Shown here piece by piece: positions 5,884-56,064 of a stretch of 64,000 nt of DNA (position 1 is the first letter of the stretch; every line of letters starts with the position of its first letter). The position numbers and the translations under genes are program-made. Source of the DNA: an uncultured Alphaproteobacteria bacterium. GTDB lineage: Bacteria; Pseudomonadota; Alphaproteobacteria; Rs-D84. Under the pieces are notes generated by a model. The model saw only the letters and a program-made list of their open reading frames with translations. It did not search any database and had not been told where the DNA came from. The stretch is taken from positions 487 through 64,486 of the forward strand of contig CALXML010000001.1 in the NCBI GenBank assembly GCA_944389465.1. Direction: 5' to 3'.

Positions 5884-6735
5884 TTAGTTAGAATAATTAC
5901 AATTTCCGTTTACAATGCTGAATGTGCCGTATATGTCTTTGCACATAGTGCTTGTTGGCAGATAGCATTGTGTTATGCTGGTTGACCCACCTGGTGATGT
6001 TGGCTGTGTATCACAGAAATCAATAATATCTGATGATGCACTGGGACAATTATAACAGCTGTGCACACGGGGATTTGGCCTATAATAGCCGGCTTTACAC
6101 GAAAAAGTGCCTAGCCCGCCGTTGCAATTTGCATTATCTGGGCATTTATTACAACGTAGTGTTATTTTACCACTGTCGTTTGGTTCACCGTCGCCAGAAA
6201 AATAGTATGATTTTTCATAAGCACAGTAGCAGTTTTTAAAAAGACCGCGTTCCGGATGTTCGCAATCTCCGTTTATGTCCGGACGGGCCCTTGAATATAG
6301 ATCACATTCTATAGGATTTGTAGTGTAGCTCATACTAGCATAAGACGAAAAAATATCAGGATACATTGATGGATTGGTTGGTTGTTCTGTATTGCCTGAA
6401 CCTGAATAACAATTTGAACCGGGAAAATATTTAGCGCAACCGTAAAATTCTTGACCTTGGGCGGCACCGGTACGTTCCCACACTGCATATTCTGATGGAT
6501 CAGTACAATAAATATTGGCGCATTCTGGTAAATCTTTTTCTTCAGACGCGCCAGTGTAGCTAAGGCCAAAACAATAAAATTTCCGGCCGCCTGTTGTTTC
6601 AACCTTGCAATAACTTTCATCAGTGTCACCATGTTCCTTAAAAAGCTCATCGTATAATTCGTTGCAGTCATATTCTTGTGAAATTGTAGCGAATTTGGTC
6701 ATAGTATAATCGTAATTGTCGTTGTATGTGTTCAA
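5884..6735 (-). CDS. Cys-rich secreted protein, family member A; start codon and N-terminal signal-peptide exon currently inverted (OFF)
   Basis: 283-aa ORF with about 30 Cys, a CNKCPDNANCNGG...C motif and the C-terminal motif KDIYGTFSIVNGNCNY. The reading frame stays open upstream to the repeat core at 6797-6802 (NGGLIICATLSSAANA/VILGN) but has no ATG or RBS there. Confidence 0.75.
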   Translation of the reverse strand: MNTYNDNYDYTMTKFATISQEYDCNELYDELFKEHGDTDESYCKVETTGGRKFYCFGLSYTGASEEKDLPECANIYCTDPSEYAVWERTGAAQGQEFYGCAKYFPGSNCYSGSGNTEQPTNPSMYPDIFSSYASMSYTTNPIECDLYSRARPDINGDCEHPERGLFKNCYCAYEKSYYFSGDGEPNDSGKITLRCNKCPDNANCNGGLGTFSCKAGYYRPNPRVHSCYNCPSASSDIIDFCDTQPTSPGGSTSITQCYLPTSTMCKDIYGTFSIVNGNCNYSN

Positions 6736-9439: not shown

Positions 9440-9612
9440 CGGTTTTTTATTTACTGGATTGCTTCGCTTTGCTCGCAATGACAAGAACTGTGGCTTTATA
9501 TAAATACGAGTAACTAGTAACCAGCAACGAGTAACCATCTTGTCATTGCGAGCCACGTTAGTGGCGCGGCAATCCATGTATATTTATGTCCGCGTCCGTT
9601 TGGACGCGGTAC
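9440..9612. repeat. mosaic REP/MITE-like palindromic repeat units (R2, GTTACTCGT-type short repeats, R1, R3)
   Basis: CTGGATTGCTTCGCTTTGCTCGCAATGACA, TGTCATTGCGAGCCACGTTAGTGGCGCGGCAATCCAT and TCCGCGTCCGTTTGGACGCGG recur at 13800-13925, 15005-15090 and 17058-17330. Confidence 0.8.
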
Positions 9613-9646: not shown

Positions 9647-9674
9647 TTGCAATTTTGGTTGGGTGTGCTATAAT
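9647..9674 (+). promoter_or_regulatory. promoter of leader RNA copy 1
   Basis: TTGCAA, a 16-nt spacer, then TGcTATAAT (extended -10). Confidence 0.55.
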
Positions 9675-9680
9675 TTTTCG

Positions 9681-9835
9681 TGCATTGGATGATTACCAGT
9701 GCGGGGTGTAAGAACCTTGAAAGACAAATCTCCAACATTGGTTGGAGGGCTCGTGAATATATTGAATAAGCGGCACTACTTGTCTTTGTAGTTCTTAACC
9801 TCCAACCGCCTTTAATCATGGCGGTTTGTTTTTAT
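9681..9835 (+). ncRNA. structured leader RNA, copy 1 (candidate riboswitch/attenuator, or an sRNA)
   Basis: It shares a conserved architecture with minus-strand copies at 14678-14907 and 18065-18252: P0 hairpin, GGGGTGT, P1, P2 CTCCAAC/GTTGGAG, P3, CCTCCAACC, then terminator ACCGCC...GGCGGT+TTGTTTTT. End coordinates are approximate. Confidence 0.6.
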
Positions 9836-9854: not shown

Positions 9855-10103
9855 ATGGCAAAATTACAAAAGTTGGAAAAAATGTTTAACAGCAATGCTG
9901 ATTTCCCAGCAGGCTATTTTTTGCATGCGGCCAGAATTTGTACCGGTTTGTCGCGTGGAATGCTGGCGTCAAAAATGGGGATATCGGTTGCTATGTTGAC
10001 TAATTACGAACAGGGCAAATCAAAAATTCCACCACGGATAATGTTACAGATTTTTCTGTTCGGATTGGATTTTTATCGGCGTGCGTCTGCCATAACAGAA
10101 TGA
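9855..10103 (+). CDS. XRE-family helix-turn-helix protein
   Basis: LHAARICTGLSRGMLASKMGISVAMLTNYEQGKSKIP is an HTH_XRE pattern. ATG 9855 follows GGGGG; ATG 9843 is an alternative start. Confidence 0.65.
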   Translation: MAKLQKLEKMFNSNADFPAGYFLHAARICTGLSRGMLASKMGISVAMLTNYEQGKSKIPPRIMLQIFLFGLDFYRRASAITE

Positions 10104-13951: not shown

Positions 13952-14230
13952 TTATTCCAACGGACAGGCGGATGTGAATACGTATGTGCCGGATGCGTCC
14001 GTATATTGCGTGTTTGCCGGTGCATACATAATGCATGAACCGGCGGGTGACGTCACCAAACAACTGGTTGTCGTGCCGGCGGATGTATATCCGGTGGGAC
14101 ATGAATTGTTCGCTATTGTCATATATTCTTCCTTTATCGTGACATAACCTGACGGACACGATGTTGACGGTGCGGCGGCAATTGCGCCGGCCGGCGCAAT
14201 TGTCAGAAACAATATAAAAATTCTTTTCAT
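13952..14230 (-). CDS. small Cys-rich secreted protein (92 aa), cassette I
   Basis: Signal peptide MKRIFILFLTIAPAGAIAAA, eight Cys, and C-terminal motif YTDASGTYVFTSACPLE. Its paralog lies at 17349-17627. Confidence 0.75.
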   Translation of the reverse strand: MKRIFILFLTIAPAGAIAAAPSTSCPSGYVTIKEEYMTIANNSCPTGYTSAGTTTSCLVTSPAGSCIMYAPANTQYTDASGTYVFTSACPLE

Positions 14231-14245
14231 ATTCGCCCCCCACGT

Positions 14246-14677
14246 TTAGTCAGATAGATTACTGAACATCGCAGAACGGACAGATGCATTGCTCGCCGCG
14301 TCGCGCGCACAGTTGTTCGCGCAAGAGACGGCACAATTAGACGCCGACCCGAAGTCGTAGCTGAACACCCAAGACGATACGGCCGGTGATGTCATTTTAC
14401 ACCAGCAATACCTGTCATCAGTACCGCCACTAATTTCCAAAGACGTCGCTGTTTGGCCAGCTGAACTGCCACTTGTGCTGGAACATTGACTTATGCCGCT
14501 TATTGCAATACTCGTCCCACTGGTGGTACAATTTGATTTCCAGTCAACAACATAACTCCCAGAATAAACATATGAACACGTTGTTGATGATGACAGTTTT
14601 ACGCATTTTGTGACGGCAAACGCCGGTGGAATTGTGGCCACGCAAATCAGGCCAGCAATTAATAAATGTTTTTTCAT
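14246..14677 (-). CDS. Cys/Ser/Thr-rich secreted protein (143 aa), cassette I
   Basis: CAGGAG RBS and ATG 14677. Signal peptide MKKHLLIAGLICVATIPPAFA. Its paralog lies at 17642-18064. Confidence 0.75.
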   Translation of the reverse strand: MKKHLLIAGLICVATIPPAFAVTKCVKLSSSTTCSYVYSGSYVVDWKSNCTTSGTSIAISGISQCSSTSGSSAGQTATSLEISGGTDDRYCWCKMTSPAVSSWVFSYDFGSASNCAVSCANNCARDAASNASVRSAMFSNLSD

Positions 14678-14907
14678 TTTCAAACTCCTGTTTTTTCTGA
14701 ATAAGAAAACCACCAGAAAATTCGGGTGGTCAGGAGGTTAGAAACAATTGAACGAATTGTGTCGCTTATTTTGATATTTCACGACCCTCCTGACCAAATA
14801 TCAGGAGTTGTTTTTCGTCGTAATAAAAACAGCGCACTTGCGCCGTATTATATATCGCGACGCGTTCACAGGGTTTCTACACCCCATTGACGGAATACCC
14901 ATCAACA
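14678..14907 (-). ncRNA. structured leader RNA, copy 2 (5' UTR of cassette I)
   Basis: Same architecture as copies 1 and 3, with compensatory variants: P2 CTCCTGA/TCAGGAG, anti-element CCTCCTGACC, P1 TAGAAAC/GTTTCTA. Terminator ACCACC...TGGTGG+TTTTC. TSS inferred. Confidence 0.6.
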
Positions 14908-14913
14908 TTTTTT

Positions 14914-14941
14914 ATATTATCACAGGTGGCAATTAAATCAA
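14914..14941 (-). promoter_or_regulatory. promoter of leader copy 2 / cassette I
   Basis: On the minus strand, TTGATT, a 16-nt spacer and TAATAT. This block is conserved with 18259-18286. Confidence 0.5.
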
Positions 14942-15004: not shown

Positions 15005-15090
15005 CATTGATTATGGCTGGATTGCTTCGCTTTGCCCGCAATGACAAGGGGGGGCGAGTTACTCGTTACTAGTTACTCGTGACTCGGGAA
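15005..15090. repeat. REP/MITE-like repeat units (R2 variant plus GTTACTCGT-type short repeats)
   Basis: CTGGATTGCTTCGCTTTGCCCGCAATGACA followed by GAGTTACTCGTTACTAGTTACTCGTGACTCG. Confidence 0.75.
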
Positions 15091-17057: not shown

Positions 17058-17330
17058 TTGCTGGTAATTGGTTATTAGTTACTCGTAACTTGTAACTCGT
17101 GTATCCGCGTCCGTTTGGACGCGGATGTTTTTATTCACTGGATTGTGCCGCATAGTTACTCGTGTTTTTTGTTATATGTCATTGCGAGCCACGTCAGTGG
17201 CGTGGCAATCCATAAAAACGCATTTGCTGACGCAAATAAGTGTATAATGACTGGATTGCTTCGCTTTGCTCGCAATGACAAAAGAAGATTGCCACGGTCG
17301 GGCGTGCGTCCGCCCTCGCAATGACAAGGG
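17058..17330. repeat. mosaic REP/MITE-like repeats (short GTTACTCGT repeats, R3 hairpin, R1-spacer-R2 element, extra R2 fragment)
   Basis: The units are homologous to those at 9440-9612 and 13800-13925. Confidence 0.8.
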
Positions 17331-17348: not shown

Positions 17349-17627
17349 TTATTCCAACGGACATGCTTGTTCAAATTCATATGTGCCGGATTCGTCAGTA
17401 TACTGCGTGTTTGCCGGTGCATACATTATACATGAACCAGATGGTGACGACACCAAACAACTGTCCGCTGTGCCGGCGGATGTGTATCCGGTGGGACACG
17501 AACTGTCCGATATTATTAAATATTCTTCTTCTATTGTTGCATAACCCGATGGGCACGATGTTGACGGTGCGGCGGCAAATGATGCACACGGCGTAATTGC
17601 AAAAAATAATATAAAAATTCGTTTCAT
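17349..17627 (-). CDS. small Cys-rich secreted protein (92 aa), cassette II
   Basis: MKRIFILFFAITPCASFAAAPSTSCPSGY...YTDESGTYEFEQACPLE. Start set at ATG 17627. Confidence 0.75.
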   Translation of the reverse strand: MKRIFILFFAITPCASFAAAPSTSCPSGYATIEEEYLIISDSSCPTGYTSAGTADSCLVSSPSGSCIMYAPANTQYTDESGTYEFEQACPLE

Positions 17628-17641
17628 ATTTGCCCCCACAT

Positions 17642-18064
17642 TTAATCGGACAGATTGCTGAACAACGCGGACCGGAAAGACGCATTGAACTGAGCGATGC
17701 TCGCACAGTTGTACGCGCAAAGGTCCGCGCAACGACCGCCCGACGAGTTCGCGCTGTAGAAAACCCAGCGCGACACCGCAGGTGATACCATTTTACACCA
17801 GCAATATTTGTTATCATTACTGGTTGAACTGGTCGTAACGGCGTCGGTGGTTGCACCAGCTGAACCGCCGTTTTGCGAACCGCAAAATGCAACACCCTGT
17901 ATTGATATGCCACCGCATGTTGCGGACCAATTTGATTGACCTGTTGCGCCCGAATAATCGGGACACGTTGTTGATGATGACAGTTTTACGCATTTGGTCA
18001 CGGCCATGGCCGGTGGAATTGTGGCCACACAAATCAGGCCGGCAATTAATAAATGTTTTTTCAT
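17642..18064 (-). CDS. Cys/Ser/Thr-rich secreted protein (140 aa), cassette II
   Basis: AAGGAGG RBS and ATG 18064. The N- and C-termini are nearly identical to 14246-14677, while the middle section has diverged. Confidence 0.75.
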   Translation of the reverse strand: MKKHLLIAGLICVATIPPAMAVTKCVKLSSSTTCPDYSGATGQSNWSATCGGISIQGVAFCGSQNGGSAGATTDAVTTSSTSNDNKYCWCKMVSPAVSRWVFYSANSSGGRCADLCAYNCASIAQFNASFRSALFSNLSD

Positions 18065-18252
18065 TCTAAACCTCCTTGTTTTCATTGCGAATGAAAAAAC
18101 CACCGAAATGAAGGTGGTTGGAGGTTCGAAACTATTAAAGGTAATAGTGCTGTTTATTCAATATATTCACAAGCCCTCCAACCGTGGTTGGAGATATTTT
18201 TAAATTTTCCTTTAAGAGGTTTCGACACCCCGTTAATGGAACGCCCATTAAC
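18065..18252 (-). ncRNA. structured leader RNA, copy 3 (5' UTR of cassette II)
   Basis: P0 GTTAATGG/CCATTAAC, GGGGTGT, P1 TCGAAAC/GTTTCGA, P2 CTCCAAC/GTTGGAG, P3 ACTATT/AATAGT, CCTCCAACC, terminator ACCACC...GGTGGT+TTTTTT. Confidence 0.6.
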
Positions 18253-18258
18253 ATTTTT

Positions 18259-18286
18259 ATATTATCACAGGTGACAATTAAATCAA
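18259..18286 (-). promoter_or_regulatory. promoter of leader copy 3 / cassette II
   Basis: On the minus strand, TTGATT, a 16-nt spacer and TAATAT. Confidence 0.5.
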
Positions 18287-55554: not shown

Positions 55555-56064
55555 TTATGTCCTCATATCACGCGATGCCGCGATTTGTGCGGCCATTTGG
55601 CTTAATCTGTCGGTTGTGGCATTTCCGCCATCGGCACTGGCCGTGTTATGTGATGGTATATATATTTTTTTTGCAGGGTTTGGCAACCATATTGTTTGCG
55701 CACCCATTTGTTCCATAATAAATTTATCCAATCGCCATGATTGGGGAAATGTCCAGCACATAAATAAATTATCGGTTTCCAATTTTCCACCCCATGTCAG
55801 TGGAACACGAAATCTGATAGATGTGTTTTGTGGCAGGGCGCGTCCCATAATGATTGCCATAAATTCATCCTGTGTCAGATTCATCAGTGCTAATTCTTCC
55901 ACAGAATCTGTTAATGACATCATAAATTCACGGCATAATTTTTTGTATTTTATGAACCAATCTGAATCAACATTGGTTTTTACCGGACGCAGTTCCGTTA
56001 CAGGCATATCTGCCATATTCAATTCATGTAAACGTCGTTGTGCCGATTCCTGTGTCAGTTGCAT
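55555..56064 (-). CDS. hypothetical protein
   Basis: 169-aa ORF translationally coupled to the upstream gene (ATG overlaps its stop). No confident family assignment. Confidence 0.45.
   Translation of the reverse strand: MQLTQESAQRRLHELNMADMPVTELRPVKTNVDSDWFIKYKKLCREFMMSLTDSVEELALMNLTQDEFMAIIMGRALPQNTSIRFRVPLTWGGKLETDNLFMCWTFPQSWRLDKFIMEQMGAQTIWLPNPAKKIYIPSHNTASADGGNATTDRLSQMAAQIAASRDMRT

Follow-up and report, generated by a model that had tools for sequence, protein, structure and literature searches.

The 64,000-nucleotide (nt) stretch analyzed here (the window; contig CALXML010000001.1, from an uncultured alphaproteobacterium of the Rs-D84 lineage) contains an intergenic segment at 18065–18252 that raises a simple question: is it transcribed into an RNA that decides whether the gene behind it is expressed? 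A first-pass annotation, made from the letters alone, had described a conserved structured leader with three copies and proposed a new riboswitch or attenuator. We identified this segment as a structured leader RNA absent from the catalogues so far, whose three copies in the window lie at 9682–9834 (+, copy 1), 14704–14906 (−, copy 2), and 18065–18252 (−, copy 3). This RNA, the full 5′ leader of its transcription unit from the predicted transcription start to an intrinsic terminator, is rather likely to be a two-state transcription attenuator.

The leader RNA and its helices

The elements that had been listed for copy 3 were all located at their places and in order when the segment was read on the minus strand. 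They comprise P0 (GTTAATGG/CCATTAAC), the GGGGTGT motif, P1 (TCGAAAC/GTTTCGA), P2 (CTCCAAC-cacg-GTTGGAG), the 22-mer GGCTTGTGAATATATTGAATAA, P3 (ACTATT/AATAGT), CCTCCAACC, the terminator AACCACC...GGTGGTT followed by T6, the Shine–Dalgarno (SD) sequence AAGGAGG, and the ATG at 18064–18062. The variant helices quoted for copies 1 and 2 were likewise confirmed. Beyond these, our analysis added the minus-strand assignment, P4, P1b, a GGGG:CCUC extension of P1, a tertiary U:A/C:G pair, the promoter, and a ‘GU’ common to P1 and P3. The three copies share a mean column identity of 70% and differ in every helix, the pairing being kept by compensatory changes. Their folding z-scores against shuffled sequence were −4.6, −4.9, and −6.5, and the 22-mer occurs twice in the window at no more than one mismatch, against 0 expected.

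A covariance model was then built and related genomes were searched, which is one of the checks that the annotation had proposed. A conserved core pattern, applied with one genome per species, gave at least 114 stretches, nearly all of them in metagenome-assembled genomes (MAGs) from human and animal guts that are named Alphaproteobacteria, Rickettsiales, or Candidatus Enterousia. The covariance model (R1), built from a MAFFT alignment of 94 parsed copies, gave 123 matches in the window and 99 loci, often several per 8-kb locus, and at least ~60 species-level genomes were found to carry the leader. The three window copies span 132–150 bits (132 for copy 1 and 135 for copy 2). A fourth window match at 55652–55829 (15.9 bits) was rejected as spurious because it is located within an open reading frame (ORF). 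A scan of viral contigs for the leader gave 0 matches, and the literature on Enterousia or Rs-D84 in combination with riboswitches or structured RNA yielded no description of this RNA. Pattern matches were also observed on contigs assigned to Bacteroidota: L042, L087, L088, and L110 (MAG labelled Muribaculaceae), together with L101 (Bacteroides fragilis) and L108 (Bacteroides sp.), the latter two of which parse as complete copies. The model search, which covered loci below L100, confirmed full-length matches in L042, L087, and L088. These are probably mis-binned Rs-D84 contigs rather than products of horizontal transfer.

Covariation was evaluated with a nested model (P0, P1, P2, P4, inner P3, and the terminator) on a structure-blind MAFFT alignment. 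The model paired 92.3% of the cells, compared with 77.5% in shuffles, and double changes were detected in 27 of the 42 pairs. Its covariation score was 0.454 against 0.184 in shuffled alignments (0/500 shuffles reached 0.454), and slid controls gave 0.07–0.12. When the model-based alignment was used, 95% of the cells were paired and double changes were found in 35 of 41 pairs. Mutual information with average product correction (MI-APC), which is also blind to structure, recovered P0, P1, P1b, P3, P2 with the alternative helix described below, and the terminator. G–U pairs were frequent (102 at one P1 pair), indicating that the structure is specific to the sense strand and is hence an RNA structure. 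The claim of a conserved structured leader with compensatory changes was upheld in this way across more than 100 homologues.

The helices are described here with the coordinates of copy 3 on the minus strand. P0, the 5′-terminal hairpin GUUAAUGG/CCAUUAAC (18232–18252), showed double compensatory changes in seven of its eight pairs and was recovered by MI-APC without prior structure. It is followed by the G-box GGGGUGU (18225–18231), whose GGGG pairs with the CCUC of a downstream switch element in one of two alternative folds, fold A; these pairs are GC in 106–109 sequences and GU in 102, the latter becoming AU in 10. Nucleotide 5 of the G-box forms a long-range covarying pair with the A of a ‘CAC’ before P3 (MI-APC; U:A in 86 and C:G in 15), which corresponds to the tertiary pair U18227:A18148 in copy 3, and nucleotide 6 is combined with the nucleotide before CCUCC as G·A (74), U–A (19), C–G (7), or A–U (4). 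The P1 strands UCGAAAC (18219–18225) and GUUUCGA (18126–18132) gave the top MI-APC pairs, and their inner pairs are formed in 94/94 copies with up to four pair types per position. P1b is formed by UUAAAGG (18209–18215), the linker located 2–6 nt after the P1 5′ strand, with CCUUUAA (18135–18141), which consists of the P3 loop and the first nucleotides of the P3 3′ arm. It comprises at least 6 contiguous bp in 94/94 copies (mean 7.5) in 68 distinct sequences, and is present in the minimum free energy (MFE) structures.

The P2 hairpin CUCCAAC-cacg-GUUGGAG (18175–18193) is 94.6% paired, with five of seven pairs doubly changed. Its sequence divides the family into type A (CUCCAAC) and type B (CUCCUGA; 31 of the 94 copies), and many copies contain an additional variable hairpin, P1a, that is long in type B. 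P4 (GCUUG/CAGC, 18149–18174) closes a conserved 17-nt loop, UGAAUAUAUUGAAUAAA, at 18153–18169. Its consensus is G(C)UYG/CRRC, of which the central pair is CG 40–47 times and UA 36–40 times with no mismatches; the loop is kept even in divergent copies and resembles the hairpin-1 loop of the small RNA (sRNA) family sRNA-Xcc1. A loop–loop pairing between P0 and P4, considered by eye, had no support in the mutual-information analysis. The P3 hairpin ACUAUU-accuuu-AAUAGU (18131–18148) has its last ‘GU’ in common with P1. One of its pairs is AU 44–54 times and UA 39–53 times, and the other P3 pairs covary too.

Two alternative folds and the terminator

The switch element of copy 3, A-CCUCCAACC (18116–18125), has two partners. 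In fold A it pairs with the G-box, and in fold B it pairs, as a putative antiterminator, with the P2 3′ arm and its flanking G’s, GGUUGGAGG (18175–18183), which constitute the 5′ strand of an alternative helix. This competition between P2 and a CCUCC helix had been proposed in the annotation, and the helix proved to be real: 9–10 bp between the P2 3′ arm with its flanking G’s and CCUCC(N4-5) are kept in 107 of 108 parsed copies. On the MAFFT alignment A4 the helix was 99.2% paired, with three pairs changing on both sides; column counts in alignment A3 are misleading for this helix, since type B has one extra base, and anchored parsing and A4 were used instead. In 49 of the 94 copies the downstream element and the P2 5′ arm are not identical. 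Complementarity to the P2 3′ arm is kept at every one of the differing positions (60/60), mostly through better Watson–Crick pairs. This indicates that both strands are constrained by complementarity to the P2 3′ arm and not by mutual copying. A mutant design for copy 3 (M1), in which CCUCCAACC is replaced by CCUCGUUCC, would break the alternative helix. An orthologue of copy 3 in a related MAG (L016, 2484–2649, −) reads CCUUC instead of CCUCC, and its downstream ORF has apparently lost its start codon; the unit may be a decaying cassette.

The alternative helix, P4, and P3 together form a seamless three-way junction (fold B) with junctions of 0, 0, and 5–6 nt, which was 97.5% paired across 86 family members on alignment A4. 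The P1 3′ strand then becomes the single-stranded junction J3/1. In fold B, the G-box is also able to form a local helix, H*, with the conserved CCY(C) that follows directly on the P1 5′ strand (CCUC at 18216–18219 in copy 3); 4–6 bp are possible in 94/94 copies, and H* is also predicted in transcription intermediates. Fold A in turn consists of the G-box:CCUC extension, P1, P1b, P2, and P4. P3 appeared in no MFE structure, and forcing it costs ~6.8 kcal/mol. P1b uses the whole P3 loop and, in 65 of the 94 copies, also 1–3 nt of the P3 3′ arm, and the P3 loop is no longer than 5 nt in 38 copies. From the overlap of P1b with the P3 3′ arm and the ‘GU’ common to P1 and P3, P3 and P1b are best read as alternatives. 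P3, which had been counted among four helices of one fold, does covary, but it competes with the better-supported P1b. Fold A was the MFE structure at the decision point in 88/94 copies and fold B in 6/94. The comparative data demonstrate both predicted folds and their mutual exclusivity.

The leader is placed between a promoter and a terminator. The promoter of copy 3 (18259–18286, −) can be read directly, with a −35 hexamer TTGATT at 18281–18286 and a −10 hexamer TAATAT at 18259–18264. A sigma-70-like TTG...TATAAT promoter lies at a fixed distance in the family, the start of the −10 being separated from the G-box by 32–33 nt in 67 of 93 copies, which indicates that transcription starts at P0. 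The intrinsic terminator of copy 3, AACCACC-uucauuuc-GGUGGUU followed by U6 (18094–18119, −), was detected by a terminator scan, and its first 4 nt are common to the switch element. Family terminators consist of 5–11 bp with a mean hairpin ΔG of −10.5 kcal/mol and a U-tract, and their stem overlaps the 3′ strand of the alternative helix by 3–4 nt in 81/94 copies. A co-oriented ORF with an SD sequence begins 10–40 nt past the U-tract in 76 of the 94 copies under a strict rule, and in ~88–90 after the remaining copies were inspected. There is no room for a second promoter between terminator and ORF, and therefore the ORF would depend on read-through. We regard this dependence, together with the predicted promoter and terminator, as demonstrated at the level of sequence signals.

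A covarying structured domain is hence located in the 5′ untranslated region of a co-oriented gene, and a GC-rich hairpin with a U-tract stands between its promoter and start codon, as in attenuators that use intrinsic terminators. The expression platform read from the sequence is mutually exclusive, the alternative helix being set against P2, the P1 extension, and the terminator. Downstream products are proteins with a signal peptide and many cysteines, an outer-membrane protein (OMP) β-barrel, a YadA-anchor adhesin, and small XRE helix-turn-helix (HTH) proteins; one protein showed a weak PKD-domain similarity below the Pfam cut-off. XRE-HTH genes follow 25 of the 76 copies, 25/25 behind type-A leaders. 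No enzymes or transporters were found downstream, and the gene set does not point to one metabolite or ion. Of the two roles offered in the annotation, that of an attenuator fits the ORFs lying 10–40 nt past the U-tract, but that of a riboswitch is unproven, as the gene set points to no metabolite. The SD sequence had also been said to change in step with P2. Such a tendency was seen in a minority of copies (CAGGAG in 9/26 type-B and 1/50 type-A copies; GGAGGU in 8/50 type-A and 1/26 type-B copies), but it is not general and could reflect paralogy of the downstream genes.

In copy 3, the SD sequence AAGGAGG (18071–18077) and the start codon (18064–18062) at 18062–18077 (−) precede a gene for a 140-residue secreted Cys-rich protein with no Pfam or NCBIfam match. 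Copy 1 (type A; 9647–9834 including the promoter, +) is composed of the promoter TTGCAA-16-TATAAT (9647–9674), P0 (9682–9702), the G-box (9703–9709), P2 (9730–9747), the P4 loop (9754–9770), P3 (9775–9792), the switch element (9799–9807), and the terminator (9804–9826), and leads an XRE-HTH ORF with its ATG at 9855 (+). Copy 2 (type B; 14704–14941 including the promoter, −) comprises the promoter (14914–14941), P0 (14886–14906), the G-box (14879–14885), a long P1a insertion (14816–14862), P2 (CUCCUGA/UCAGGAG, 14787–14807), the P4 loop (14765–14781), P3 (14744–14760), the switch element CCUCCUGACC (14728–14737), and the terminator (14709–14730). The P1a of copy 2 contains at 14829–14846 (−) a GC-rich hairpin, ACGGCGCAAGTGCGCTGT, followed by TTTTTATT, which resembles an intrinsic terminator. 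Many of the type-B copies inspected (e.g., L002, L004, and L020) contain the same GC-rich hairpin and U-run, which could be an early stop site.

The genes behind copies 2 and 3 belong to paralogous two-gene cassettes (13952–14713 and 17349–18064, both −), each encoding a secreted Cys-rich protein of ~140 residues and then one of ~92 residues. They belong to no Pfam or NCBIfam family, and of the two cassettes one is preceded by a leader of type B and one by a leader of type A. The window contains a third Cys-rich ORF at 5884–6735 (−). ORF-less promoter–RNA–terminator units were observed in tandem in three loci, L084 (5881–6058, −), L069 (4821–5373, −), and L027 (2940–3350, −), where they precede a unit that does lead an HTH gene, with gaps of 22–67 nt. 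Each has its own promoter; some are intact (154 bits) and others are decaying (25–57 bits). A variant unit at L069 4535–4752 (−) keeps the frame of P0, GGGGU:ACCCC, P1, P1b, a P4-like hairpin, and the terminator around other inner hairpins. It has the P4-like loop UAAAUAGUAGGAAUAAG, a possible alternative helix GGCCGGGGG/CCCCUUGGCC, a folding z-score of −6.7, and no Rfam match, and occurs once among the at least 114 loci listed. A second repeated intergenic element was also noted in the window. Runs of a 7-nt repeat, GTAACNN, at 9510–9535 (+), 15058–15083 (−), and 17071–17096 (10 matches against 2.5 expected) adjoin a repeated hairpin, CCGCGTCCGTTTGGACGCGG, at ~9590–9612 and 17104–17125, and two of the three runs lie ~130–150 nt upstream of a leader promoter.

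Relation to sRNA-Xcc1

The RNA had not been recognized as any known family in the annotation, and this was examined against Rfam 15. No match at the gathering score was obtained across the whole window or in 18 homologous loci, and neither T-box nor other Rfam families gave anything relevant at E ≤ 10 except sRNA-Xcc1 (RF02221), to which the 3′ half of the leader is reproducibly similar below threshold. No tRNA genes were found in the window. The E-value mode on 10 kb returned noise only, because the filters masked the similarity, which became visible in searches of 220–280 nt. Copies 3, 2, and 1 scored 35.3, 30.6, and 29.6 bits, respectively (E = 7e-5 to 1.5e-3), the gathering cut-off being 53.

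sRNA-Xcc1 was described as an 88-nt RNA in Xanthomonas campestris (PMC2996969). Its locations include integron cassettes, where it precedes symE (10.1101/2025.06.18.660453), phages such as APSE, where an ORF6N gene lies behind it (10.1101/2020.03.17.996009), plasmids, and genomic islands. Seven copies occur in Xylella, with five arranged in tandem (PMC12189769). It is termed a trans-acting sRNA, with no mechanism given in the cited papers.

The RF02221 model, with 87 positions and a three-way junction, aligns over its entire length to fold B of each window copy. Its outer helix (~9 bp, G-rich/C-rich) corresponds to the alternative helix, hairpin 1 to P4, and hairpin 2 to P3; the hairpins are directly adjacent in both RNAs, and ACC follows them after a 6-nt J3/1. 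In sRNA-Xcc1, hairpin 1 has the loop AAUACAA-(ACCCGaAAGGG)-GAAUAA. Its flanking motifs appear here as UGAAUAUAU and UGAAUAA, so that AAUAYA and GAAUAA are common to both loops, but its internal mini-hairpin is absent. Both RNAs are multicopy, arranged in tandem, and located directly upstream of small genes (symE and KilA-N/ORF6N for sRNA-Xcc1). The leader differs in its separate terminator, in its host lineage (Rs-D84 Alphaproteobacteria), and in an extra 5′ half of 70–130 nt (P0, G-box, P1, P1b, P1a, and the P2 5′ arm) that is able to mask the junction. The junction thus lies 75–130 nt past the promoter-defined start, after the conserved 5′ half, whereas sRNA-Xcc1 is a free-standing RNA of ~88 nt.

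A bona fide sRNA-Xcc1 was available for comparison on a Kingella potus plasmid (L115, NZ_CP091517, 1156–1238, +; 56.4 bits with Rfam). The reciprocal test with the fold-B model R2 gave only 5.0 bits on it. Promoter-like hexamers precede this RNA, and the start codon of a KilA-N gene follows 37 nt after it; roughly 15–20 nt separate the hexamers from the junction, with no 5′ half. The 3′ strand of its outer helix overlaps a small hairpin, GCCGC-CCUUUU-GCGGC. From this arrangement, a cis-acting role appears possible for canonical sRNA-Xcc1 RNAs as well. A BLAST search for further sRNA-Xcc1 members in plasmids returned two records only. Membership of the leader in sRNA-Xcc1 is not established, since its scores lie below the cut-off, reciprocal detection failed, and the mini-hairpin is absent. 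It is related in architecture and represents a new elaborated variant.

Switching model, rival explanations, and known systems

In fold A, a long-range clamp would form between the 5′ half of the leader (G-box, P1 5′ strand, P1b 5′ strand, and P2 5′ arm) and, in the opposite order, its 3′ half (P2 3′ arm, P3-loop region, P1 3′ strand, and CCUC), with P4, and P1a where present, branching off the clamp. The terminator would then be free, and transcription would stop 10–40 nt before the start codon. Fold B would be built of local structures. Pairing of the P2 3′ arm and its G’s with CCUCC(N4-5) would close the three-way junction that contains P4 and P3, and the G-box could pair locally as H*; the alternative helix would take 3–4 nt of the 5′ arm of the terminator and favor read-through into the downstream gene. 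We infer that cells switch between the two folds, and that an effector, which may be a small molecule, a protein, or an RNA, sets their ratio. The preferred version is an ON switch whose effector stabilizes the fold-B junction, because the computed energies make fold A the default state and fold B resembles the free-standing sRNA-Xcc1. The tertiary pair could belong to either fold, however, and the leader may instead be an OFF switch. To judge from the genes behind the leader, the trigger would be a global signal or a protein or RNA factor rather than a pathway metabolite. A more far-reaching version, to which we assign a low though not negligible probability, regards the fold-B junction as the aptamer of a new riboswitch class for a signalling molecule or ion. 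It would be a master switch of the surface proteome and XRE regulators in genome-reduced (<1 Mb) gut symbionts, and by extension the sRNA-Xcc1 RNAs of integron cassettes, phages, and plasmids would be the same aptamer, controlling in cis the gene that follows each of them.

Several observations weigh against the two-state attenuator. On average, the nearest-neighbor advantage of fold A is 5.7 kcal/mol at the decision point, rising to 10.5 kcal/mol for the full-length RNA, and the switch might therefore never flip without an effector. P1 and P1b together comprise ~19 bp, which is unusually long for a ligand-gated helix. The loss of 3–4 of the 7–9 terminator pairs may weaken the terminator and not abolish it. 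The covariation of the alternative helix comes from few independent haplotypes, namely UUGG/CCAA, UCAGG/CCUGA, CUGG/CCAG, and GUGG/CCAC. Searches of the downstream proteins against Pfam, NCBIfam, and PDB gave generic HTH, OMP, and YadA-anchor matches only, with no clue to a ligand. A few intact units have no ORF (L084, L069, and L027), which would be compatible with an RNA that is functional by itself.

The last point leads to the most likely of the rival explanations, which we nevertheless consider unlikely. Here, the terminated RNA of ~150–210 nt would be the main product, and the copies would be trans-acting sibling sRNAs that bind a target or protein through the 17-nt P4 loop or CCUCC, ORF expression being leaky read-through. 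That every unit starts at a promoter of its own and ends in a good terminator, that the terminating fold is the thermodynamic default, and that ORF-less units and tandem arrays exist would all be expected of such RNAs, as would the resemblance of the 3′ domain to sRNA-Xcc1, which was detected as an 88-nt RNA (PMC2996969) and is repeated in tandem in Xylella (PMC12189769). However, ~90% of the copies are followed within 10–40 nt by a co-oriented SD-bearing ORF with no space for a further promoter, and only ~5 of the 123 units have no ORF, several of those being degenerate. CCUCC is base-paired in both folds, and the window contains no excess of complements to the 17-nt loop, the copies themselves aside, nor a convincing trans target. 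A purely trans-acting RNA also needs no pair of covarying alternative folds tied to a terminator. The next rival, a distinctly improbable one, assumes a single static fold: P3 and P1b would coexist in fold A as a compact pseudoknot, and the leader would serve as a constitutive 5′ stabilizer or insulator or as a platform that binds a processive antitermination factor, the complementarity between CCUCC and P2 being a by-product of the likeness of CCUCC to the P2 5′ arm. A 6–7-nt hairpin loop fully paired to another strand would be sterically possible, as in kissing-loop complexes; the tertiary pair shows a defined three-dimensional fold, and fold A is very stable. This reading conflicts with the intrusion of P1b into the P3 3′ arm in 65/94 copies and with the 38 copies whose P3 loop is too short for a helix of at least 6 bp, and the 60/60 positions that preserve pairing with the P2 3′ arm argue for selection on the alternative helix itself.

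The multicopy, intergenic occurrence of the leader also agrees with a selfish or mobile repeat in which a promoter and a terminator are present by chance. Candidates would be a miniature inverted-repeat transposable element (MITE), a sequence resembling Rickettsia palindromic elements, or an integron cassette boundary, and the related sRNA-Xcc1 does travel in integron cassettes, plasmids, and phages (10.1101/2025.06.18.660453; 10.1101/2020.03.17.996009). This explanation is very improbable, however, as copies of one genome differ in every helix yet pair by compensatory changes, the G–U pairs make the structure strand-specific, and no flanking terminal inverted repeats or viral-contig matches were found, the orientation to the downstream ORF being fixed. 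Almost no credence is given to a ribosome-mediated leader-peptide attenuator using GGAGGG as the SD sequence of a GUG-initiated peptide. A GUG does occur 3–4 nt after GGAGGG in all pattern-selected copies, but its frame is not conserved, extending over 3 to >23 codons with indels that shift it, and 28/94 copies have no stop within the leader. The candidate was effectively refuted, as no conserved short ORF exists within the leader among the 94 copies. The two-state attenuator thus remains the preferred interpretation of the leader.

Its significance lies partly in the host. Candidatus Enterousia, of the order Rs-D84, has genomes of ~0.75–1.0 Mb and few regulators (PMC12306168), and three leader copies were nevertheless found within 64 kb. 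Post-initiation control of the cell surface in this uncultured, host-associated lineage is probably exerted mainly by the leader. It would also represent a rare RNA switch in which each state is separately supported by covariation, and hence a clean system for strand-exchange switches. Furthermore, it ties sRNA-Xcc1, a widespread RNA of mobile elements, to a cis-regulatory architecture, which provides a testable hypothesis for sRNA-Xcc1 too. The working principle, competition between terminator and antiterminator, is already known; the RNA itself is not in Rfam at threshold.

Three known systems can be compared with the leader. The alpha-r14/NfeR1 and CcsR ‘cuckoo’ families are multicopy alphaproteobacterial RNAs with CCUCC-type anti-SD motifs and Rho-independent terminators, all of which are also observed here. 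Their C-rich motifs are placed in hairpin loops and their genes stand alone, whereas CCUCC is paired in both folds of the present RNA, which is a leader and has no Rfam matches to them. The c-di-GMP-I (GEMM) riboswitches are present in many copies per genome before surface, adhesion, and regulatory genes, including orphan and tandem units. The likeness is confined to this type of regulon, with no structural or sequence similarity and no Rfam match. The third comparison concerns transcriptional riboswitches in which the closing helix of the aptamer competes with the terminator, e.g., the pbuE adenine ON switch. The leader differs from these in that its competitor consists of the terminator together with an elaborate antisense-like 5′ half, and in that the controlled genes encode surface proteins and regulators and do not form a metabolic pathway; the two are unrelated in sequence and by Rfam, and no ligand can be inferred for the leader. 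Both have a three-way junction, a closing helix whose 3′ strand overlaps the 5′ arm of the terminator, a competing fold that is the more stable of the two, and a position in the 5′ untranslated region beside the promoter.

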